From contig SVHV01000001.1 of assembly GCA_015055605.1 (NCBI GenBank), positions 65,026-129,025 of the forward strand: a stretch of 64,000 bases of DNA, in the 5' to 3' direction. The position numbers and the translations under genes were made by a program. Shown in pieces: positions 2,895-14,388 of the stretch. Every line of letters starts with the position of its first letter. Position 1 is the first letter of the stretch. Source of the DNA: Clostridiales bacterium. Lineage in GTDB: Bacteria; Bacillota; Clostridia; Christensenellales; UBA1242. The notes beneath the pieces are model-generated. The model had not been told where the DNA came from. It worked only from the letters and a program-made list of their open reading frames with translations, and ran no database searches.

Positions 2895-4394
2895 ATGAAA
2901 TATTTAGATGATACAATATGTAAAAGGCTAAAGAGGTATGGTATGAGGCTTAAAAAAATTATAGAAAATCTACCTATTGTGAGTATAAAAAATTTAAAAA
3001 ATTATAATATAAAATCTATCACACATATATCACGAGATGTTGCAAAAAATAGTATATTTATCTGTATAAAAGGTAGTGAATATAATGGTAATGATTATAT
3101 AGATGAGGCTATTCAAAATGGTGCAAAAGTAATTATTACAGAGGAGGAAGTTTGTAGTCCTAATATAACTATAATTGTTGTAAAAAATATCAGAAAAGCC
3201 ATGAGTATTGTGGCTAAAAACTTCTATAATAAGATATGTGATACGATGCAAATAATAGGAGTAATAGGAACTTCTGGTAAGACTACAACTAGTTTTATTA
3301 TCAAACAATTATTGTGTTCTACTGGCAATAAGATAGGTATTATAGGCACAAACGGTATATATATTGACAATATTAGATTAGAAAATGATTTTACAACACC
3401 TGACCCTCTGGAGATGCATTACATCTTTTATCAGATGAAAATGCTGGGAGTTGAGACTGTTGTAATGGAGGTGTCTGCACAGGCAATTAGTCAATATAAG
3501 ATGTATGGAATTAGACTCAAAATAGGTGTGTTTACAAATATTAGTAATGAACATCTAGACTTCTTTGGAACAATGGAAAATTATGCTAAATGTAAGATGG
3601 ATTATTTCAATATTCGTAATATGGATGAGGCAGTTATTAATGTTGATGATTTCTATGGGAGGGAGTTGGCATTTAAAACAAATATGCCCGTTGTTAGTTA
3701 TGCTATAGATTCACCTGCGAATGTTTTTGCAATGAATATTGAGAGTAGTTTAAATGGAATAGAATTTGTAGTTAATTGTTTAGATGATATATACAAAATA
3801 AATACAAAATTAGTTGGCAAATATAATGTTTATAATATTCTCGCAGGAATGACTGTGTCTAAAATGTTGGGTTGTAAAAAATCTGATATAGAGTATGCTG
3901 TGAATAATCTTCAAAAGATAGATGGTAGATTTAATCTTTTCAGTTTGCCTAAAAACAATAGTATTATAGTTGACTTTGCTCACACGATAGATAGTATTGA
4001 GAAGTTGCTTTCATTTGTTAGAGAAAATGTGGTGGGTAGAGTCATTACACTATTTGGATGTGTTGGCTATAGTAATAGAGATAAAAGAAAACAGATGATG
4101 GAGAATGTTCTTAGATATTCTGACTATGTGATTGTGACTACCGATAATAGAGGGGAGACACCTTACGAAGATATAGTTGCTGATATGGTAGATGGTGTTT
4201 CTCCTAGTAAATATATTTCTATAGAGGATAGGGCTTGTGCTATACATTTTGGTTATGGGTTACTTAAGGAGAATGATGCATTAGTTGTAATGGGTAAGGG
4301 TGCTGAGAATTTTCAGAAAATAGAAAAAGAAAGAATACCGTATAGTGATATTGATATTGTTCAACAATTAATTAAAAAGCAAGGTTTAGTATGA
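2895..4394 (+). CDS. murE: UDP-N-acetylmuramoyl-L-alanyl-D-glutamate ligase MurE (a likelier start is ATG 2943, behind an AAGAGG site)
   Basis: It has the Mur ligase P-loop GVIGTSGKTTT and family-wide similarity (HLDFFGT, DGRF). It lies between the PBP gene and mraY. Confidence 0.9.
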   Translation: MKYLDDTICKRLKRYGMRLKKIIENLPIVSIKNLKNYNIKSITHISRDVAKNSIFICIKGSEYNGNDYIDEAIQNGAKVIITEEEVCSPNITIIVVKNIRKAMSIVAKNFYNKICDTMQIIGVIGTSGKTTTSFIIKQLLCSTGNKIGIIGTNGIYIDNIRLENDFTTPDPLEMHYIFYQMKMLGVETVVMEVSAQAISQYKMYGIRLKIGVFTNISNEHLDFFGTMENYAKCKMDYFNIRNMDEAVINVDDFYGRELAFKTNMPVVSYAIDSPANVFAMNIESSLNGIEFVVNCLDDIYKINTKLVGKYNVYNILAGMTVSKMLGCKKSDIEYAVNNLQKIDGRFNLFSLPKNNSIIVDFAHTIDSIEKLLSFVRENVVGRVITLFGCVGYSNRDKRKQMMENVLRYSDYVIVTTDNRGETPYEDIVADMVDGVSPSKYISIEDRACAIHFGYGLLKENDALVVMGKGAENFQKIEKERIPYSDIDIVQQLIKKQGLV

Positions 4395-5371
4395 AGGTTG
4401 GTTTAATTAATTTAATTATTTGTTTTGTTGTGGCAATGATTCTTGCACCATTCATGATTAAATTCCTAAGGAAGCTGAAGTTTGGACAGAGTATACTTGT
4501 TTATGTTGAGGCTCACAAAACAAAGTCGGGCACGCCTACTATGGGTGGAATAATATTCATACTATCAGCAATAGTCGGATACTTTTTGTTTTGGAGTAAA
4601 AACAATGTTTTTGCTACGATTTCTATATTGAGTTTGGTCTTTTTTGGAGTTATCGGATTTTTAGATGATTTTATTAAGATTAAGTATAAACAGAATGAGG
4701 GACTGAAGCCTTATCAAAAGTTGATAGGGCAATTCGGTATTGCTGTTATTATTGCAGTATTTGTATATAAGTCAGAATTGATAGGCTCAGAGGTAATTCT
4801 CCCTTTTACAGGTATGTCTATTGATTTCGGGTTTTGGATTGTTCCTTTTGTTATATTTGTTTATTTGGCGATTGTGAATAGTGTAAATCTAATTGATGGG
4901 CTAGATGGTCTTTGTAGTTCGGTGTCTGCTATAGTTTTATCTGCATTTTCGATTGTGATTTTTTTGAAAAAAACATTAGTAGATGGAGTATATGCAAATG
5001 AGATTAATAATCTAGTTATAGTGACATTAGGTTTGGTTGGGGCGATACTTGGTTTTATATTTTTTAATTCTCACCCTGCCAGATGTTTTATGGGTGATGC
5101 TGGCTCGCTAGCATTAGGGGGATATATTGCATCAGTTTTTGTGGTGACTAGACAATATTTATTATTTTTAATTTTAGGCTGTGCTTATGTGCTAACAGTA
5201 ATATCAGTTGTGTTGCAGGTGGGGTATTATAAGTTGACGAAAAAGAGAATCTTTCGAATGGCTCCACTCCATCATCATTTTGAATTAAAGTACGGAGAAA
5301 CTAAGGTGGTCTCGTGGTACAAGATTTTTACAATTATTTTATGTGTACTAACAATTATTTTATATGTGTGA
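4391..5371 (+). CDS. mraY: Phospho-N-acetylmuramoyl-pentapeptide transferase MraY
   Basis: It is a polytopic membrane protein with the motifs GTPTMGG, NSVNLIDGLDGL, FMGDAGSLALGG and APLHHHFE. Its start overlaps the murE stop (ATGA). Confidence 0.96.
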   Translation: MKVGLINLIICFVVAMILAPFMIKFLRKLKFGQSILVYVEAHKTKSGTPTMGGIIFILSAIVGYFLFWSKNNVFATISILSLVFFGVIGFLDDFIKIKYKQNEGLKPYQKLIGQFGIAVIIAVFVYKSELIGSEVILPFTGMSIDFGFWIVPFVIFVYLAIVNSVNLIDGLDGLCSSVSAIVLSAFSIVIFLKKTLVDGVYANEINNLVIVTLGLVGAILGFIFFNSHPARCFMGDAGSLALGGYIASVFVVTRQYLLFLILGCAYVLTVISVVLQVGYYKLTKKRIFRMAPLHHHFELKYGETKVVSWYKIFTIILCVLTIILYV

Positions 5372-6692
5372 GGGGATTATGAATTTTGATTACAAAAACA
5401 TATTAATAATGGGCTATGGTAAAAGTGGTGAGGCTGTGGAAGAAATTGTGAAAAAACTTCAGGTTGACTACAAAATATACGATGCTAGCAAAAAAATTAC
5501 AGGAGGAAATTATTATTCAACTCTTAGCAAAAAGATAATTAGAGACTTTGATTTACTTGTACTATCTCCTGGGATATCAATCTATAATAAATATGTAGTT
5601 TACGCTGAAAAAATTGGTATCAAAGTTGTGGGAGAACTAGAATTTGGTTACTGGTTTACTTCGTCACCAGTTTTGGCTATCACCGGCACTAATGGGAAGA
5701 CTACAACTACTAGGCTTTTAAATGAAATTGTTGGAACAACTTTTTCGTGTGATGCTTTTGGTAATATAGGTAATCCTCTGAGTTCTGGGTATAATAGAGA
5801 ACTAGACTATATGGTTTGTGAGGTTAGCTCATTTCAACTGGAATCAACATATTCTTTTAAACCATATATTTCAGTTATTCTAAATATTGCAGAAGACCAT
5901 ATAGATAGACATAAGACCTTTGAAAACTATATTTGTTGCAAAATGGGGCTACTTAAGAATTGTACGGAAAAATCTCTCGTTGTTCTCAATGCTGATGATA
6001 AGCTCCTAATGGATAGGGGTATCTCTATTAATGCAAAAAAGTATTACATATCTAAGTTTGGAAAAGTGAAGGGAGTGTACTATTTAGATGGAAAAATTTA
6101 TTCTAATATAAGTGGTAATCATCTTTTTTTGGATATGACGGGTTATGATAGGTATTTGCCTATTCTTGATGATTTACTCGCTAGTATTTTAGTGAGTTTG
6201 CTTTTAAAAATAGATAAAGAAAAAATAGTAGAAGCAATAGATAAATTTGAATTATCTCCACATAGACTCGAAAAGGTATGTGAAGATTGTGGGGTAGAGT
6301 ATATTGATGATAGTAAAAGTACAAATATACACAGTACACTCAATGCTTTGGAAAGTACAAAGGGTAATGTTGTATTACTATTAGGTGGAGTAGATAAAAA
6401 ATTAAATTTTGAAAAAATATTTTCTGCCTACGGTAATAAAATTAGTCAGGTTATTGCCTTTGGTGATGCTAGGAAAAAAATACTTAGGAGTGCGAAGAAA
6501 AGTAACTTTGAGAATGTTGTGAGCTATAGATTTTTTTACGATGCAGTAAAGTATGCTTGTGGTATTGCAAAAGAGGGTGAGACGGTGCTACTTTCCCCAG
6601 CCTGTGCGAGTTTTGATGAGTTTAGTAGTTATGCAGAGAGAGGAGATTGTTTTTTAAAAATAATCAAGGAATATGTAAATGCAAAAAACTAG
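5364..6692 (+). CDS. murD: UDP-N-acetylmuramoylalanine--D-glutamate ligase MurD (alternative start ATG 5379)
   Basis: It has the P-loop ITGTNGKTTT, an N-terminal Rossmann-like GYGKSG, and a Mur ligase C-terminal domain. It sits in dcw position. Confidence 0.9.
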   Translation: MCEGIMNFDYKNILIMGYGKSGEAVEEIVKKLQVDYKIYDASKKITGGNYYSTLSKKIIRDFDLLVLSPGISIYNKYVVYAEKIGIKVVGELEFGYWFTSSPVLAITGTNGKTTTTRLLNEIVGTTFSCDAFGNIGNPLSSGYNRELDYMVCEVSSFQLESTYSFKPYISVILNIAEDHIDRHKTFENYICCKMGLLKNCTEKSLVVLNADDKLLMDRGISINAKKYYISKFGKVKGVYYLDGKIYSNISGNHLFLDMTGYDRYLPILDDLLASILVSLLLKIDKEKIVEAIDKFELSPHRLEKVCEDCGVEYIDDSKSTNIHSTLNALESTKGNVVLLLGGVDKKLNFEKIFSAYGNKISQVIAFGDARKKILRSAKKSNFENVVSYRFFYDAVKYACGIAKEGETVLLSPACASFDEFSSYAERGDCFLKIIKEYVNAKN

Positions 6693-7824
6693 AAAATTGA
6701 ATATTGTTTTGATTGTGACTGTAGTTTGTCTATGTTTATTTGGTATACTCATGATTTATAGTGCGAGTTGTTATTCTAGTAATGTTCTCTATGGTGATAG
6801 TTTTCACTTTGTAAAGAAACAATGCTTTGGTTTTTTGATGGGACTGGGGTGTCTAGTTTTTACAGCCCGCTTTGATTATCACAAATATTACAAACTGAGA
6901 TATTGGATAATAGCAACTTCAATTATTTTATTAGTATTGGTTTTTGTGCCTGGTATTGGTATTTCTGCTAATGGTGCTCGGAGATGGATAGGCTTTGGCT
7001 CATTTAACCTGCAGAGTAGTGAGGTTGCTAAATTTGGCTTTGTTATATTTTCTGCTTGTTATTTGTCCAAAAATTATAAGAAAACAAAAACATTTATGGG
7101 TATTCTGCCTATACTGTGTGTAGGAGGATTAATCTGTTTACTCGTAATGTTAGAGCCAAATATGAGTGTGACTATGTGTATAGCAATGGTAATGATTATT
7201 ATGTTGATAATAGGTGGTATGAGGTGGAAACACATTGTTATTCTTGCTATACCAGCATTGGCTCTAGTGGTATTGCTTATAGTCATAGAACCATATCGAT
7301 TAGATAGGCTTATGGCTTTTATTAATCCATGGGCAAATCCCAAAGAAGAGGGCTATCAATTAATACAATCCCTATACTCTCTCGGTGCTGGTGGATTTTT
7401 TGGTGTAGGGCTATTCAATAGTAGACAGAAGTATCTATTTTTACCGTTTAGTGAGAGTGATTTTATCTTTGCTATTATTGGTGAAGAGTTCGGTTTCTTG
7501 GGTTGTGTTATTTTGATTATGGTATACATTTTGATTATATCTATTGGTATCAAAATTGCCATTACTTCGGTAGATAGATTAGGTACATATCTGGCCTCAG
7601 GTATAACATCAGTCATAGCAGTACAGATGCTTATTAATATTGCTGTAGTTACAGGCTCTATTCCTCCGACTGGAATACCACTTCCGTTTATGAGTGCAGG
7701 TGGCACTAGTTTAATGGTGTTTATGGCAGCGATAGGGATACTATGTAATGTGGGGAGGAGTAATCAAGAGAGTGCTAATGGTTTTAATTTATTCAAAATA
7801 AAAAAAATAAAGGAGCATAAATAA
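6679..7824 (+). CDS. ftsW: SEDS-family peptidoglycan glycosyltransferase FtsW/SpoVE
   Basis: It has about 10 TM segments and SEDS motifs (RWIGFGSFNLQSSEVAKF, LPFSESDFIFAIIGEE, IPLPFMSAGGTSL). It follows murD, as spoVE does in B. subtilis. Confidence 0.92.
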   Translation: MQKTRKLNIVLIVTVVCLCLFGILMIYSASCYSSNVLYGDSFHFVKKQCFGFLMGLGCLVFTARFDYHKYYKLRYWIIATSIILLVLVFVPGIGISANGARRWIGFGSFNLQSSEVAKFGFVIFSACYLSKNYKKTKTFMGILPILCVGGLICLLVMLEPNMSVTMCIAMVMIIMLIIGGMRWKHIVILAIPALALVVLLIVIEPYRLDRLMAFINPWANPKEEGYQLIQSLYSLGAGGFFGVGLFNSRQKYLFLPFSESDFIFAIIGEEFGFLGCVILIMVYILIISIGIKIAITSVDRLGTYLASGITSVIAVQMLINIAVVTGSIPPTGIPLPFMSAGGTSLMVFMAAIGILCNVGRSNQESANGFNLFKIKKIKEHK

Positions 7825-7836
7825 TGCTCTTTTTTA
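7813..7836 (+). terminator. Rho-independent terminator overlapping the ftsW stop codon
   Basis: A gagcat / atgctc stem with a 5-nt loop is followed by T6. Confidence 0.6.
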
Positions 7837-7887
7837 TTGTCCCTACATTATTTTATAATGTAATTTTAATAACATCTATTAATTCAT

Positions 7888-7916
7888 TTGACAAAGTTGT
7901 TCGGGGGGGGTAAGAT
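7888..7916 (+). promoter_or_regulatory. Sigma-A-type promoter with a G8 tract inside the spacer (TTGACA, 17 nt, TAAGAT)
   Basis: TTGACA lies at 7888-7893. The spacer at 7894-7910 ends in GGGGGGGG (7903-7910). TAAGAT lies at 7911-7916, about 55 nt upstream of the AAGGAG RBS and ATG at 7970. A paralogous copy lies at 11620-11650. Confidence 0.65.
7903..7910 (+). repeat. Homopolymeric G8 tract (candidate slipped-strand contingency repeat)
   Basis: This is a run of eight G in a genome of about one third G+C. It lies between the -35 and -10 elements. Confidence 0.9.
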
Positions 7917-7969
7917 AAAAATGTATAGATGTGTCGAAAAAGGGCACAATATGTATAAGGAGATAATAA

Positions 7970-9694
7970 ATGGCAAAAAACAAAGACAAGAAAAAAATTC
8001 CTTTTAATACCTTTAGAAAAGGTATTACTGCAGGAACTCTAGGTCTTACTATGTTACTAAGTGGAGCAGGAATGCTTGCTGGTTGTGGTGAGAAGGGTGA
8101 CAGAGGTGAAGTTGGTGCTACAGGTAAGAGTGCTTATGAAATTGCAGTGGAATATGGATTTTCTGGCACCGAAGCCGAATGGTTAAACAGCCTAAAAGGT
8201 GCTAACGGAACTTCTAGCTATACACACATAAAATATGCTGATTCAATGCCTGATGAAAATTCGGATATTTTATTAAGTGGAACAGGTGCTTACATTGGTA
8301 TTTATGCAGGGCCAAGTGAAACTGCACCTACTAACTATACCGACTATAGTTGGTATAAAGTTAAGGGTGAAAATCCTAAAATAACCTACGATAAAAATGG
8401 ATACATTGTTGTTGATGGAGTAAAAACAGATGTTTGTTTGTATCCTACCGGGGTTTCTTATCCTTTCAATTTAAATTCAGAAAACTACTCTAGTTATAAA
8501 TACGAATTTAAACAAGCCAATGCTTTAGGTGTTTCTAGCAATATAAGGATTTCACTTTGGTTTGATTACAAATTTAAAGCGGGCACACAATTTAAATGTG
8601 TAGGTGATGATACTAAGTATAAAATGGGTTTACTTATTTCTCGTGATGGTGTTAATTTTGATGCTAGTAAAACCCCTCAAATTGCAGAAGATACTGGTTG
8701 GATTAATAGTTCTTCAGCAACAGGTAATTACAACAAGGGCAGTGGCACAGTAGCACACCCATACGATGCAACAACAAAAACCCTAACTTTAGCCGCAGAT
8801 TCGTATGTAAGAATTGGTTTTGCTACAACAAGTGATGCAGCTATTTCAACATCTAACTTTAACTGGCAAAATTATATTGCAATTACCGGACATTATTTAG
8901 AATATGACAAAATTATAAATGTAACAACTGGCGAAATTCCTACTCAAGTTGGCAATTATGGTATGAATGCAGTTGCACACAGAGGCGCTTCTACTGAAGC
9001 TCCAGAAAACACACTTATTGCATATCAAATTGCAAAAGAGCGTGGCTTTATAATGGCAGAGTGTGATGTAACATTTACTAAAGATGGAGTTGGTGTGTTA
9101 TTACACGATGACACAATTAACAGAACATCTAATGGAACTGGTAATATTAGGGATTTAACTCTTGCCCAAGTTAGACAATACGACTTTGGTAGTTGGAAAG
9201 GTACTGAGTTTGTTGGAACACAAATTCCTACATTTGAAGAATTTATTAGATTATGTAAATATATTGATATGCATCCTTACATTGAAATTAAGAGTGGTTG
9301 TTCACAAGCAGAAGTTGAAAGTTTGGTTGCTACTGTAAGAAAATACGGAATGCTTGATAGAGTTACTTGGATTTCTTTTGAGTTTAGCGCTATACAATAT
9401 GTTAAAAATGTGGATGATACTGCTAGACTTGGTTATTTAGCAGCTCCAATTACAGAACAAAAAATCACAGAATTAAAAACTTTGAGAACCGGTAAAAACG
9501 AAGTGTTCTTTAGTGCTGATAATACAAAAGTAACTACAGCACTTATTGAAAGATGTATTGAAGAAAAAATTCCACTTGAAGTTTGCACTGTTGATAATGT
9601 TGACACCATTACAAACCTACATCCTTACATTACTGGTGTTACAAGTAACGATAAAATTGCTGGTCAGCTTTTATACGACAAATATAAAAAATAA
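7970..9694 (+). CDS. Surface lipoprotein: collagen/tail-fibre-like head module, unknown beta-rich middle domain, and C-terminal glycerophosphodiester phosphodiesterase (GDPD) domain
   Basis: The signal peptide has the lipobox LAGC. A GxxGxxG segment plus SAYEIAVEYGFSGTEAEWLNSLKG follows. The GDPD motifs are AHRGASTEAPENT, ECDVTFTKDGVGVLLHDDTINRTSNGTG, and FEEF...YIEIK. Confidence 0.85.
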   Translation: MAKNKDKKKIPFNTFRKGITAGTLGLTMLLSGAGMLAGCGEKGDRGEVGATGKSAYEIAVEYGFSGTEAEWLNSLKGANGTSSYTHIKYADSMPDENSDILLSGTGAYIGIYAGPSETAPTNYTDYSWYKVKGENPKITYDKNGYIVVDGVKTDVCLYPTGVSYPFNLNSENYSSYKYEFKQANALGVSSNIRISLWFDYKFKAGTQFKCVGDDTKYKMGLLISRDGVNFDASKTPQIAEDTGWINSSSATGNYNKGSGTVAHPYDATTKTLTLAADSYVRIGFATTSDAAISTSNFNWQNYIAITGHYLEYDKIINVTTGEIPTQVGNYGMNAVAHRGASTEAPENTLIAYQIAKERGFIMAECDVTFTKDGVGVLLHDDTINRTSNGTGNIRDLTLAQVRQYDFGSWKGTEFVGTQIPTFEEFIRLCKYIDMHPYIEIKSGCSQAEVESLVATVRKYGMLDRVTWISFEFSAIQYVKNVDDTARLGYLAAPITEQKITELKTLRTGKNEVFFSADNTKVTTALIERCIEEKIPLEVCTVDNVDTITNLHPYITGVTSNDKIAGQLLYDKYKK

Positions 9695-9737
9695 AATTGT
9701 ATGAATAATATAAAAACAAAATAATAGGAGATAAGAT

Positions 9738-11465
9738 ATGTCAAAAGATAAAAATAAAAAACCTTTTAATGTATTAAGTAAAAAAGGTTTAATGACACTT
9801 GCACTTGCTGGTGCTATGGTTGCTAGTCCATTTATGTTTGTAGGTTGTGGTGAAACTGGTCCTAAGGGTGATGCGGGAAGCGTTGGTAAAAGTGCTTATG
9901 AAATAGCTGTAGAAAACGGTTTTACAGGCACAGTTCAGGAGTGGCTAAATAGTTTAAAAGGAACAAGTGGAACTAATGGTTATACTCATATAAAATATGC
10001 AGATTCAATGCCTGATGAAGATGCAGACATTTTAGTATCAGGAACAGGTGCTTACATTGGTATTTACAATGGAACAAGCGAAACAGCACCTACAAGCTAT
10101 ACTGCTTATACATGGCACAAAATTAAAGGTGATACACCAAGTATTGCTTTTGATAGCGAAGGATTTATTATTCTTGATGGTGTAAAAACTAATATTTGTA
10201 TTTATGATGCAGAAATCGAACAAGAAATTGTATATAATGCAGCAACTTATTCTAATTATGAATATGTAAAAAAACAAGGCAATGCTTTAGGATCAGTTGA
10301 TGCTCAGACTGCTAAAAGAACATCTATATGGTATCCTTACAAATTTAAAGAGGGTACAACATTTAAATGTGTAGGGGATGATTCAACTTATAACTACGGT
10401 TTTTCTATTTCTTCCGATGGTGTTAATTTTGATGCAAGAGAAGTTCCTGGTTTAGCAGAAGATACTGGCTGGATTTCTAGCACAACACCTTCAGGAGGCT
10501 TAAACCTTGGAGCTAGTGCAGTTAAACATCAATATAACAAAGATACAAAAACTTTAACTTTAGCTAGAGATTCTTATGTAAGAATTAATTTCAGCACAGC
10601 AGGCCAAACTGGAGAAATTTCACCTAACACTCAAGAATGGGAAAAATATTTTGAAATTAATGGTTCAATTTTAGTTGATTCCGATACAGTTCATATCACA
10701 CCTGATAAATCAGGCGAAGTTAATAGTTATGGTATGAATTCAATTGCCCTTATGGGTTATTCTACCGAAGCTCCGGAAAACACACTTTCTGCAGTTAGAT
10801 TAGCTCATGAAAAAGGCTTTGATATGGTTGCTTGTGATGTTTCATTTACAAGTGACGGTGTTGGTGTACTATTGCATGATGATACAATTGATAGAACTTC
10901 TGATGGAACAGGTAATATTTCAGAAATGACACTTGCCCAAGTTAAAGAATATGACTTTGGTTCTTGGAAGTCTGCTGCTTATGCTGATGAAGAAATTCCT
11001 ACATTTGAAGAATTTATTAAAGTATGTAAATATATGGCAATTCACCCTTACATTCAAGTTAAGAGCAGTGCAACACAAGCAAATATCGAAAGTTTAGTTA
11101 CAACTGTGTTCAGAAGCGGAATGTTAAATAAAGTTACTTGGGTTTCTTCTGATATTGATGTTTTAACAGCTATTAATCAATTAAATGCTAAAGCAAGATT
11201 AGGATATGCAACTGAATCTATTACAACTGATCAAATTGCAGAATTGGAAGCATTAAAAACAGAAACTAACGATGTGTTCTTCTATGCTAATAATGCAAAT
11301 TTAATTGTTTCTCTTGTTGATAGTTGTATTTCTAAATATCTACCAATTGAAGTATATGGGGTTAATGAAGTTTCAGACATTGAAAATTTACACCCTTATA
11401 TTACTGGTGTTGCAAGTAACGACAAAGTTGCTGGACAAATCTTATATGATAAATATATGAAATAA
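9738..11465 (+). CDS. Paralogous surface lipoprotein with a C-terminal GDPD domain, probably co-transcribed with 7970..9694
   Basis: It has the lipobox FVGC and the same head module (SAYEIAVENGFTGTVQEWLNSLKG, YTHIKYADSMPDE). The GDPD motifs are STEAPENT and ACDVSFTSDGVGVLLHDDTIDRTSDGTG. The 43-nt gap upstream contains no promoter or terminator. Confidence 0.85.
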   Translation: MSKDKNKKPFNVLSKKGLMTLALAGAMVASPFMFVGCGETGPKGDAGSVGKSAYEIAVENGFTGTVQEWLNSLKGTSGTNGYTHIKYADSMPDEDADILVSGTGAYIGIYNGTSETAPTSYTAYTWHKIKGDTPSIAFDSEGFIILDGVKTNICIYDAEIEQEIVYNAATYSNYEYVKKQGNALGSVDAQTAKRTSIWYPYKFKEGTTFKCVGDDSTYNYGFSISSDGVNFDAREVPGLAEDTGWISSTTPSGGLNLGASAVKHQYNKDTKTLTLARDSYVRINFSTAGQTGEISPNTQEWEKYFEINGSILVDSDTVHITPDKSGEVNSYGMNSIALMGYSTEAPENTLSAVRLAHEKGFDMVACDVSFTSDGVGVLLHDDTIDRTSDGTGNISEMTLAQVKEYDFGSWKSAAYADEEIPTFEEFIKVCKYMAIHPYIQVKSSATQANIESLVTTVFRSGMLNKVTWVSSDIDVLTAINQLNAKARLGYATESITTDQIAELEALKTETNDVFFYANNANLIVSLVDSCISKYLPIEVYGVNEVSDIENLHPYITGVASNDKVAGQILYDKYMK

Positions 11466-11484
11466 AAATTATAAATATATAAAA

Positions 11485-11513
11485 AGAGTGGGAATTTACT
11501 CCACTCTTTTTTT
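11485..11513 (+). terminator. Rho-independent terminator of the two-gene GDPD lipoprotein unit
   Basis: An agagtgg / ccactct stem is followed by T7. Confidence 0.75.
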
Positions 11514-11619: not shown

Positions 11620-11650
11620 TTGACAAAAAGCATCGGGGGGGGGGTAATAT
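11620..11650 (+). promoter_or_regulatory. Paralogous sigma-A-type promoter with a G10 tract in the spacer (TTGACA, 19 nt, TAATAT)
   Basis: TTGACA lies at 11620-11625. The spacer at 11626-11644 ends in G10 (11635-11644). TAATAT lies at 11645-11650. The downstream leader, RBS and first codons are homologous to those of 7888-8000. Confidence 0.65.
11635..11644 (+). repeat. Homopolymeric G10 tract (candidate contingency repeat)
   Basis: This is a run of ten G between the -35 and -10 elements. It is 2 nt longer than the paralogous tract at 7903-7910. Confidence 0.9.
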
Positions 11651-11704
11651 AAAAGTGTATATTAGTGTCTAAATAAGACAAAATATGTATAAAGGAGATA
11701 ATAA

Positions 11705-14170
11705 ATGGCAAAAAACAAAGACAAGAAAACAATCCCTTTCAATGTATTTAGAAAGGGAATAACCGCAGGTGCACTAGGTCTTACTATGTTACTAAGTGGA
11801 GCAGGAATGCTTGCTGGTTGTGGTGAGAAGGGTGACAAAGGTGAAGTTGGTGCTACAGGTAAGAGCGCTTATGAAATTGCTGTAGAAAATGGATTTACTG
11901 GTACAGTTCAAGAGTGGCTAGATAGCCTAAAGGGACAATCTGGTGGTGCAGGTAGTGCAGGTATAGATGGTAAGGGTATTCAGTCTATCACAAAGACTGG
12001 TACAAATGGTCTAGTAGATACATATACAATTACATTTACAGATGGTACATATACTACATTTGAGATTACAAATGGTGCAGAAGGTCCACAAGGCGATCCG
12101 GGACAACCAGGAACTCCAGGACAACCAGGAACTCCGGGTGCTCCAGGACAAAATGGTGCTACTTGGTTAACAGGTACTGCTATTACAGGAACTGGCACAG
12201 GAATCTCTGCAACTATTGCAAATTCAAAAGTTGGCGATTTGTATTTCAACACTAATACTAGCGATATTTATCAATGCACAGCAGAAAACACTTGGAATTG
12301 GATTGCCAATATTAAAGGCGAGAACGGTGAAGATGGTATTTCTGCTTATGTCGGATATGATGGCAACTTGTGGTATGGCACCCAACGAAGTGATTTGCAA
12401 ATTGAAGATTATACCGAATCTGGTGTTTTTGAAAATTCTATTAGAATACCTGGTTCTGAAATGGAAAAATATTTTGAAAGGGAATATGTTAACCTTTCTA
12501 GCAATACAATTGCCTTGATGTCAAATTATATGCCAAATGCAAAACTTACACAGTATAGTGGAGTGAAAGTTAATGAACTTTCTATATATGCAGAAGATGC
12601 AGGTTTATTACAGATAGGTACAGCTAAGGTTGCAGATGTTGTTGACGCTAGATTAAATGGTGTAACTTATTCTTTAACATCTCAATTTTCTTTTAGTGTT
12701 CAAAAAGGATTAAATGATTTAGTTGTTAATATTGAAGTCGCAGAGGATGAAACTTTAGTTGTTGGAGGTAATAACTCGGTTGGATTATATGTGTCAAAAG
12801 GTATAACTAAAACCGGTGTTGAGGGTGATTATACTTTACTTGATCGTAATCAAAATGCTTATGTGTTAGAAATGTCTGATAACATAAAAAACACTTTAGC
12901 TTTAAAAGTAAAAGCAACCCCTTTGGCTGGCATAAAAGCAGTATTCCCAGATTTATTGAATCAAGTAAATCCCGCTATGCAAAATTCTTCATTGCCGGGA
13001 GCGTTGCAAGCTTTCCCATTTCATTATGGAAAAAAAGATTTATTTGCAAATAAGCAAATTGTCAAAATTGGTTTAATTCCAAAAGCCTGTACCGATTTTG
13101 ACAATCCTACTTTCACAGTGTATAAAGTGCGACAAAGTCAAACGACAAATTATACAGATCAAGGCAATTATATTGAAAAGTATACTCTTCAAGTACCAAT
13201 TTCATCTAGTGATGATTATGGTAAATTTGTGTATGTTGATTGTGATATTACAGTTGGCGCAAATGAAAAAATAGTATTTGGTGATCCTAGCGATACTGTC
13301 AATTGGGGGTATTTAAGGGAAGTTGCTCCAGAGTATTCAGTGTCAGAAAATCAAGATCCAAATGCTGCTAGTTACACATGCTTAATTTTTGATATTTATG
13401 AATATTCAGATTTTACTTACGAAGACCATATTAACAAACTAAAAGAAGAAGAGATTAATGCGTCGGGTGTACTTAATGCAAAATATGAGGAATTGGCATC
13501 TATTTTAAAAAATAAAACAATTTCTATTTTAGGAGATAGTATTAGTACTTATAACGAATATTCAGAAGGGTCTGCTGCTCAGACATCAAATAGCACAATT
13601 GGTAGTAACTCATTATTTTATACAGGTGAAAATATTATTTCTGATGTGAATGATACTTGGTGGATGCAACTTATTAATCAAACAGAAATGAAATTGCTAG
13701 TTAATAATTCTTTTTCTGGGGATGAAGTATGGAATCGTGGTCAAACAAGATGTGAACAACTTCATGATGATACAGGAACTAATGCGGGGACAGAACCTGA
13801 TTTTATTGCTGTGTATTTAGGAACAAATGATTTAAATAGAAGTGCAACTGTTGAAGACTTTACAACAAACTATAGAAATATGGTTAATAAAATCCTTACT
13901 AAATATACAAATTCCGAAGTGTTCTTGTTTACATTATTGCCAAATGGACAACCAATAGAAAGACAAGATGCATTTAATAATGCTATTAGAAGTATTGCTG
14001 AAGAATTGAATTGTGGGTTAGTAGACATAAATGCTGAAAGTGGTTTCACATCGAGCAATTTTAGAATTTATACTGCGGATGGTACACATCCAAATAGTTG
14101 GGGTATGGATTTAATTTCTGAGTGTTTTTGGAATGTCTTATACGATAAATATGTAACAAATGCTGATTAA
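11705..14170 (+). CDS. Surface lipoprotein: shared head module, collagen-like GXY tract, large unknown middle region, and C-terminal SGNH/GDSL hydrolase domain
   Basis: The first ~60 aa are nearly identical to the 7970 product (lipobox LAGC). The collagen tract reads GPQGDPGQPGTPGQPGTPGAPGQNG. The SGNH blocks are ILGDSIS (I), LGTNDL (III) and DGTHPN (V). Confidence 0.85.
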   Translation: MAKNKDKKTIPFNVFRKGITAGALGLTMLLSGAGMLAGCGEKGDKGEVGATGKSAYEIAVENGFTGTVQEWLDSLKGQSGGAGSAGIDGKGIQSITKTGTNGLVDTYTITFTDGTYTTFEITNGAEGPQGDPGQPGTPGQPGTPGAPGQNGATWLTGTAITGTGTGISATIANSKVGDLYFNTNTSDIYQCTAENTWNWIANIKGENGEDGISAYVGYDGNLWYGTQRSDLQIEDYTESGVFENSIRIPGSEMEKYFEREYVNLSSNTIALMSNYMPNAKLTQYSGVKVNELSIYAEDAGLLQIGTAKVADVVDARLNGVTYSLTSQFSFSVQKGLNDLVVNIEVAEDETLVVGGNNSVGLYVSKGITKTGVEGDYTLLDRNQNAYVLEMSDNIKNTLALKVKATPLAGIKAVFPDLLNQVNPAMQNSSLPGALQAFPFHYGKKDLFANKQIVKIGLIPKACTDFDNPTFTVYKVRQSQTTNYTDQGNYIEKYTLQVPISSSDDYGKFVYVDCDITVGANEKIVFGDPSDTVNWGYLREVAPEYSVSENQDPNAASYTCLIFDIYEYSDFTYEDHINKLKEEEINASGVLNAKYEELASILKNKTISILGDSISTYNEYSEGSAAQTSNSTIGSNSLFYTGENIISDVNDTWWMQLINQTEMKLLVNNSFSGDEVWNRGQTRCEQLHDDTGTNAGTEPDFIAVYLGTNDLNRSATVEDFTTNYRNMVNKILTKYTNSEVFLFTLLPNGQPIERQDAFNNAIRSIAEELNCGLVDINAESGFTSSNFRIYTADGTHPNSWGMDLISECFWNVLYDKYVTNAD
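12101..12136 (+). repeat. Perfect-but-one 18-nt tandem duplication encoding GQPGTP x2 within the collagen-like tract
   Basis: ggacaaccaggaactcca is followed directly by ggacaaccaggaactccg. Confidence 0.85.
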
Positions 14171-14183
14171 TATTAAATAATTA

Positions 14184-14212
14184 AGAGTGGAAAATTATTC
14201 CACTCTTTTTTA
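14184..14212 (+). terminator. Rho-independent terminator after the SGNH lipoprotein gene
   Basis: An agagtgg / ccactct stem with a 9-nt loop is followed by T6. Confidence 0.75.
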
Positions 14213-14306: not shown

Positions 14307-14388
14307 GTTAACAGGTAGCATTCCACCAACAGGTATACCACTTCCGTTTATGAGTGCAGGAGGAACTATCCTTATGGTCTTTATGGTT
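14307..14388 (+). pseudogene. Orphan fragment of an ftsW/spoVE 3' end (would encode TGSIPPTGIPLPFMSAGGTILMVFM)
   Basis: It aligns with ftsW 7648-7730. A 26-nt identical core (ataccacttccgtttatgagtgcagg; 7675-7700 = 14335-14360) is flanked mostly by synonymous-type differences. No upstream part of the gene is present. Confidence 0.8.

Follow-up and report, generated by a model that had tools for sequence, protein, structure and literature searches.

The locus raises the question whether a run of eight guanines, placed between the two hexamers of a putative promoter, may set the expression of the genes behind it by changing its own length. The window, i.e. the whole stretch of 64,000 nucleotides which was analysed, has a G+C content of about 33%. 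A first-pass annotation had pointed to two long G runs as the only ones in 64 kb, both at the same place of paralogous promoters, and had called them unexpected in DNA of such low G+C. Both statements were borne out. G runs of length 4 occurred 77 times and those of length 5 14 times, lengths 6 and 7 were absent, and there was one run of 8 and one of 10; the longest C run did not exceed 4. Because the window is otherwise devoid of G or C runs above 5, the G8 and the G10 are outliers. The expectation from a first-order Markov model is 0.2 for runs of at least 8 G and 0.009 for runs of at least 10 G. Homopolymers of G or C are regarded as hypermutable simple sequence repeats at a length of about 7-8 or more, and both tracts are in this range. 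The notion that the tract itself is an assembly or sequencing artefact was rejected because it is present in >14 independent assemblies (JGI, ENA and Logan) and in several species.

Upon re-reading, the hexamers, the spacer and the G tract of the first promoter, P1, were located exactly to the base where they had been annotated (Table 1). Its TTGACA is identical at the second promoter, P2, and at the loci L001, L002, L003, L006 and L026. In both promoters the tract resides within the spacer, the arrangement being TTGACA-17-TAAGAT in P1 and TTGACA-19-TAATAT in P2. We consider it likely that P1 and P2 are promoters of the sigma-A/sigma-70 type with a hypermutable G tract in the spacer, and that slippage in this tract drives phase variation of the downstream lipoprotein units. 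Slipped-strand mispairing at replication would add or remove single G residues. Gain or loss of a G would change the distance between -35 and -10 in 1-bp steps (17, 18, 19, 20 nt) and concomitantly alter the rotational phasing of the hexamers. Since a perfect -35 hexamer is combined with a weak -10 hexamer (4/6), promoter strength should depend strongly on spacing. The outcome would be a heritable, reversible, stochastic and independent switching of two units, one consisting of two GDPD phosphodiesterase lipoproteins (P1), the other of a collagen-like GDSL hydrolase lipoprotein (P2). For the configuration captured in the window, the prediction is a high or ON state of P1 (17 nt) and a low or OFF state of P2 (19 nt); that G8 at P1 represents the ON configuration is plausible. 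What the comparisons show is the presence, position and rarity of the tracts, their length polymorphism among samples and species, and the recurrence of the architecture; promoter use, direction and size of the effect on expression, the rate of switching, its reversibility and heterogeneity within a population are inferred.

Table 1. Predicted promoter elements, genes and terminators in the window, and the corresponding promoters of related species.
Feature	Position	Strand	Remarks
Terminator-like hairpin ending ftsW	7809-7833	+	10-bp stem and T run
P1 -35 hexamer TTGACA	7888-7893	+	perfect consensus
P1 spacer, 17 nt (aagttgttc + G8)	7894-7910	+	
P1 G8 homopolymer	7903-7910	+	proposed slippage-prone tract; adjoins -10 hexamer
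P1 -10 hexamer TAAGAT	7911-7916	+	4/6 to TATAAT; A2 and T6 kept
Predicted P1 transcript start (~7922-7925) and 5'-proximal stem-loop of the 5' UTR	7923-7956	+	start deduced from position of -10 hexamer
Ribosome-binding site AAGGAGA	7957-7963	+	6 nt 5' of ATG; from sequence
Gene 1, lipoprotein	7970-9694	+	lipobox LAGC; short collagen-like/GKSAYE motif; C-terminal GDPD phosphodiesterase domain
Gene 2, lipoprotein	9738-11465	+	GDPD paralog
Terminator-like hairpin ending P1 transcription unit	11481-11511	+	12-bp stem and T run
P2 -35 hexamer TTGACA	11620-11625	+	
P2 spacer, 19 nt (aaaagcatc + G10)	11626-11644	+	
P2 G10 homopolymer	11635-11644	+	adjoins -10 hexamer
P2 -10 hexamer TAATAT	11645-11650	+	weak, 4/6
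Gene 3, lipoprotein	11705-14170	+	N-terminal module as in genes 1 and 2; collagen repeats; C-terminal GDSL/SGNH hydrolase domain
Terminator-like hairpin ending P2 unit	14183-14207	+	
L001 promoter			G8; spacer 17 nt; -10 TAGTAT
L003 promoter			G9; spacer 18 nt; -10 TAGTAT
L006 promoter			G8; spacer 17 nt; -10 TAAGAT
L026 promoter			G10; spacer 19 nt; -10 TAGTAT
L002 promoter	4262-4291 (in L002)		GGGGGAGGG, interrupted tract; spacer 18 nt; -10 TAGTAT

P1 and P2 can be aligned from about position 7885 into the coding region, i.e. they are paralogous promoters. Because of this paralogy the identical position of the two tracts does not represent two independent events. As far as the alignment tells, what counts in the comparison is that the tract is retained despite a diverged remainder of the spacer, in which only 4/9 positions are identical. 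Two further readings of the region were tried. A TATAAA downstream of the P2 tract was rejected as an alternative -10 box because the spacer would then be 22 nt, and a G-quadruplex at the tract was rejected because there is a single G run only.

Upstream of P1 is a dcw cluster with mraY, murD (5364-6692) and ftsW (6679-7824; identified by Pfam). The hairpin at the end of ftsW is predicted to shield P1 from read-through out of this cluster. P1 had been proposed to drive both GDPD genes as one unit. As far as can be read from the DNA this stands: the 43-nt gap between the genes (9695-9737) is without a terminator, and the sole promoter-like match in its vicinity, at 9670-9697, agrees in 9/12 positions, which is at the level of chance. 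Genes 1 and 2 are probably co-transcribed from P1, and gene 3 is predicted to be driven by P2. A GDPD-GDPD gene pair behind a single poly-G promoter is also present in L001. All three proteins carry a signal peptide and a lipobox (LAGC or FVGC) and have extracytoplasmic GDPD or GDSL domains, as befits surface products. Probably, these lipoproteins act on lipids or teichoic acids of the host or of neighbouring cells.

Following the lipobox, a motif GKSAYE[IL]AVENGF.GT..EWL.SLKG is encoded at 8120-8200, 9880-9960 and 11855-11935 of the window. It is very widespread, with >577 relatives in the genome scan, not only in Firmicutes but in Neisseria, Acinetobacter, Treponema and others as well, and often it is located beside collagen-like repeats. 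A genome search with an alignment of the N-terminal module retrieved mostly GKSAYE..GF.GT..EWL in unrelated proteins; only L026, L054 and L098 were added as loci with poly-G promoters. Another peculiarity of the region concerns ftsW. A 76-nt copy of its 3' end (7651-7726), 80% identical, is present at 14311-14386, just downstream of gene 3. Because of this copy the 6.5-kb lipoprotein island is flanked by direct repeats of ftsW sequence, which could be the scar of an insertion or a duplication at the 3' end of ftsW.

3' of both -10 boxes, the expected +1 position is occupied by a purine, which is followed by a 5' stem-loop and a free AAGGAGA ribosome-binding site. At P1, the ATG of gene 1 is 53 nt downstream of the -10 hexamer with hairpin and ribosome-binding site in between. 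The hairpin has a folding energy of -9.2 kcal/mol (z = -3.6). A 5' hairpin was present in all 7 promoters of the family which were folded (P1, P2, L001, L002, L003, L004 and L006), even when the sequences differed. This order of purine, hairpin and free ribosome-binding site is as expected if the hexamers flanking the tract constitute a working promoter. The P2 counterpart of the P1 stem-loop is at 11657-11690, and the z-scores in the family range from -2.1 to -3.6. The hairpin sequences differ between two promoter subfamilies, e.g. GUGUC...GGCAC vs UUAAAAC...GUUUUAA. The stem-loop could be an mRNA-stabilising hairpin or an operator palindrome. A comparison with Rfam assigned none of the 5' UTRs to a known RNA family; the sole match in the window was a tRNA at 25934-26005.

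Phase variation predicts that tract length differs within the organism. Contigs of the same organism were collected from JGI, ENA and Logan assemblies by exact-protein look-ups with ftsW and the three lipoproteins; all tract lengths reported are assembly consensus calls. Twenty distinct contigs were compared with the window, each aligned over 1.6-7.7 kb with 0-1 mismatches, and every indel was within a G tract. At P1, G8 was present in 10 samples and in the window, and G9 in 3 samples (JGI 3300022660, JGI 3300029705 and ERZ27248314). At P2, G10 was present in 6 samples and in the window, and G11 in 2 samples (JGI 3300024270 and JGI 3300024272); the predicted optimum of G8, equivalent to 17 nt, was found in 0/9 samples. 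Tract lengths thus differ among samples of one organism while the flanks are conserved, and the variation seen within the species is ±1 only. The first-pass annotation had asked for a comparison of tract length in related genomes and had named as its refutation a tract which is fixed in all populations and relatives. The tract turned out to be variable, with G8 and G9 at P1, G10 and G11 at P2, and G8-G10 or an interrupted tract in other species, which supports the proposed reading.

Ten A/T runs (7-8 nt) located within the same 10.7 kb served as control, and 0 length variants emerged in 100 contig observations. One of them, an A8 at 7800-7807 just 96 nt away from the G8 tract, was A8 in 15/15 contigs. 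Illumina sequencing and assemblers err more at G homopolymers than at A/T runs, and for this reason the control is imperfect. The contigs of the same organism were collinear with the window in this region and no inversion was seen.

Several contigs terminate at the tracts. L021 stops exactly after the G8, L230 starts inside the P1 tract and ends 16 nt past the P2 tract, and the end of L231 is within the P2 tract. In a related species, contig L004 starts inside its own tract. Otherwise, Logan contigs break at a 30-nt stretch common to genes 1 and 3. Such breaks would fit branch points of the assembly graph; hence the end of L021 may indicate two tract lengths within the sample. This potential heterogeneity within a sample is suggestive only.

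Other contigs had unusual joints. In the last 16 nt of L229 and L230, from two JGI samples, TAAATAAAAAGGTTTA takes the place of TAATATAAAAGTGTAT after the G10 of P2, and there the contigs end. A tail of the TAAATAAAAAGGTTTA type is absent from the window. It may stem from another genomic poly-G promoter which the assembly graph connected through the tract. Metagenome contigs gave no match to an exact 32-mer taken from the ribosome-binding site and 5' coding region that the genes share. In L015 (ENA ERZ27248370, k141_1176835), P1 together with the beginning of gene 1 is fused to gene 3 and both GDPD genes are missing. The crossover is inside a 64-nt stretch which is identical in genes 1 and 3 (8039-8102 and 11774-11837). 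The same sample also yielded L231, which holds gene 1, gene 2 and the P2 tract. Because the allegedly deleted segment is present in the same sample, an assembly chimera across the 64-nt stretch is as likely as a genuine variant, with a deletion or a swapped promoter, within a mixed population.

When species genomes were scanned at the protein level, relatives were identified in MAGs of uncultured Clostridia from gut samples, those of sheep and goat among them (Table 1). L001 and L003 are syntenic with the window, i.e. mur genes, ftsW, promoter and GDPD lipoprotein succeed each other; in L001 a second GDPD lipoprotein follows. L006 has its promoter before a GDSL lipoprotein gene elsewhere on the chromosome, after ileS. 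TTGACA and TAnnnT around the tract are conserved in P1, P2 and six other loci, and the remaining spacer diverges. In these predicted promoters the relatives keep the position of the tract, the perfect -35 hexamer and the TAnnnT; what changes is the length of the tract. An interrupted tract as in L002 would be expected of a switch 'locked' by mutation. In two loci with more distant genes that share the N-terminal motif, L054 (G10 at 143-152) and L098 (G9 at 1143-1151), the tract is in mid-spacer. The layout is TTGACA-5 nt-G9/10-5 to 7 nt-TATAAT with 20-21 nt in total, i.e. the tract does not always abut the -10 box.

Is this architecture confined to one family of lipoprotein genes? One genome from each of 185,579 species was scanned with the pattern TTGACAAA-N7-10-GGGGGGGG-TA (G8+), by which only spacers of 17-20 nt are detectable. 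At least 120 loci with the -35/poly-G/-10 pattern were found in many phyla, mostly in gut or host-associated MAGs. Among the matches listed, the groups represented included Clostridia, Lachnospiraceae, Bacilli/'Tenericutes', Spirochaetes, Saccharibacteria, gut Alphaproteobacteria, Lentisphaerae and Coriobacteriia. The -10 box was completed to TAnnnT at 119/123 sites (97%) among the matches listed, compared to a background of 30% in the same loci, and TATAAT, TAAAAT and TAGAAT were the commonest boxes there. The median distance from the -10 box to the ATG of the ORF was 42 nt among the matches listed. According to a crude heuristic, 70% of the downstream ORFs among these listed matches start with a signal-peptide-like N-terminus vs 24.5% of the remaining ORFs at these loci. 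With poly-C in place of poly-G, a search of the complete collection gave 23 loci, of which 12 had a TAnnnT. Two such poly-G promoters before paralogous genes were observed in L120, L142, L146 and L207.

The census shows the hexamer/poly-G/hexamer arrangement as a real, recurrent design of predicted promoters and not as a chance match to consensus. It also shows what appears to be a specific preference for G on the non-template strand beside the -10 box. The excess of G over C, at least 5 to 1, would call for a mechanistic explanation, e.g. a G constantly present at -14/-13 which contacts sigma irrespective of tract length. Among the matches listed, spacers of 17 nt occurred at 21 sites, of 18 nt at 36, of 19 nt at 51 and of 20 nt at 14. 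The commonest spacers are 18-19 nt and not 17 nt; accordingly, either the majority of these promoters rest at low activity, or the optimal length of a spacer with a G tract deviates from 17 nt. Tentatively, we propose that P1 and P2, together with these loci, may belong to a much more general, under-appreciated class in host-associated bacteria of many phyla, in which TTGACA and a short spacer are followed by G8-15 on the non-template strand abutting TAnnnT. The class would be located upstream of secreted, lipoprotein and pilin-like genes.

How else can the tracts be explained? They might be fixed structural or spacer elements that do not switch, the ±1 differences being homopolymer errors of sequencing or assembly. 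Such errors are conceivable: only consensus contigs are behind the lengths, the differences are just ±1, Illumina chemistry is known to be weak at poly-G, and contigs may end at a poly-G also when coverage drops. Nevertheless, this explanation is unlikely. The G9 at P1 came from two pipelines (JGI and ENA/megahit) and the G11 at P2 from two JGI samples, G8 and G10 were agreed upon by most samples across three pipelines, and the A/T runs of 7-8 nt showed 0 variants per 100 observations. Moreover, sequencing error cannot explain that different species have 8, 9 or 10 G or an interrupted tract.

Even less probable is that the tract is the binding site of a regulator or exerts an effect via DNA structure, e.g. 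as a rigid A-like G.C tract or by a G at -14 as in an extended -10. Regulation would then be deterministic and length changes incidental. A binding site should keep its length, whereas here length varies between identical flanks, and an architecture spread over many phyla is unlikely to share one regulator. It is true that the strand bias, at least 120 poly-G loci against 23 with poly-C, indicates that base identity matters and not only length, and that an operator could be formed by the hairpin or palindrome conserved immediately downstream. Yet a regulator or a structural effect is compatible with phase variation and not exclusive of it. Finally, the flanking hexamers could be chance matches to consensus, with the real promoter elsewhere and tract length without effect on transcription. 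In this AT-rich region promoter-like matches are indeed at chance level (34 found vs 33.2 expected). However, TTGACA and TAnnnT around the tract were kept in P1, P2 and six other loci despite divergence of the spacer, TAnnnT was present at 119 of the 123 sites among the census matches listed, and the upstream terminator, the 5' hairpin and the ribosome-binding site are placed as expected. We regard a chance match as very improbable and favour slippage-driven phase variation at P1 and P2.

If slippage operates here, an uncultured Clostridia lineage of the animal gut would use the spacer-length device of Neisseria, Treponema and Mycoplasma, and the expression of surface enzymes, i.e. glycerophosphodiester phosphodiesterases and a GDSL hydrolase, would be diversified. 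If the general class is real, much of the surface variation in gut commensals would arise from promoter switches based on simple sequence repeats (SSR) and not from invertons alone. Tracts of this kind interrupt assemblies, and expression state would differ between otherwise identical genomes; poly-G tracts in metagenomes are best read per individual read. As a lead, the pan-phylum poly-G/-10 architecture with its strand bias has the greater novelty. Together, census and preference of G over C may hint at a rule by which such switches are generally built. In the literature we found no report of a poly-G or SSR-type promoter switch in Clostridia, which, as coverage was incomplete, is weak evidence. 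Apparently, the device is that of known SSR promoter switches in a new, uncultured clade, and undescribed in Clostridia.

The closest precedent for the position of the tract is porA of Neisseria meningitidis. There, a poly-G is located between -35 and -10, its length sets the spacing with an optimum of 17 nt, and expression is graded or off (PMC7864442). P1 and P2 likewise have a G tract in the spacer of a putative sigma-70 promoter in front of a gene for a surface protein. Unlike porA, an outer-membrane porin of a Gram-negative pathogen, the genes reported here code for lipoprotein enzymes of uncultured gut Clostridia of Gram-positive type. In Treponema pallidum, tp0126 has a poly-G between -35 and -10 and is transcribed best at a spacing of 17 nt; in tprE/G/J up to 8 G are permissive and longer tracts are off, and in tprE/G/J/L the tract lengths vary from 7 to 11 G within isolates (PMC7864442). 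As in T. pallidum, the device is common to paralogous genes for surface proteins (PMC7864442). Many loci from Treponema and other spirochaete MAGs were among the census matches listed. Phylum and gene families of our locus are different from those of T. pallidum. In the tpr genes the transcription start is a few nucleotides past the tract, and the geometry is not always of the spacer type, unlike that of P1 and P2.

In the vlp genes of Mycoplasma hyorhinis a poly-A is located in the -35/-10 spacer, 17 nt correspond to ON and each gene is switched independently. The vlp genes are paralogous lipoprotein genes with a conserved cassette of promoter, 5' UTR and signal peptide and with divergent mature parts. 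The present locus is similar in that lipoprotein paralogs share a cassette of promoter and signal peptide, and a homopolymer is in the spacer of the predicted promoter. The differences are a poly-G in place of a poly-A, and GDPD and GDSL enzyme domains in place of repetitive structural antigens.

Within the class Clostridia, phase variation is known from Clostridioides difficile, with switches at cwpV, the flagellar genes, cmrRST and pdcB; in each of them a site-specific recombinase inverts a segment of DNA (PMC11868660). In gut commensals, Clostridia especially, phase variation has been described mainly via invertible promoters (PMC11868660). With C. difficile our locus would share the class and the phase variation of surface or signalling genes. 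Unlike the C. difficile invertons, the candidate switch here is a simple sequence repeat.
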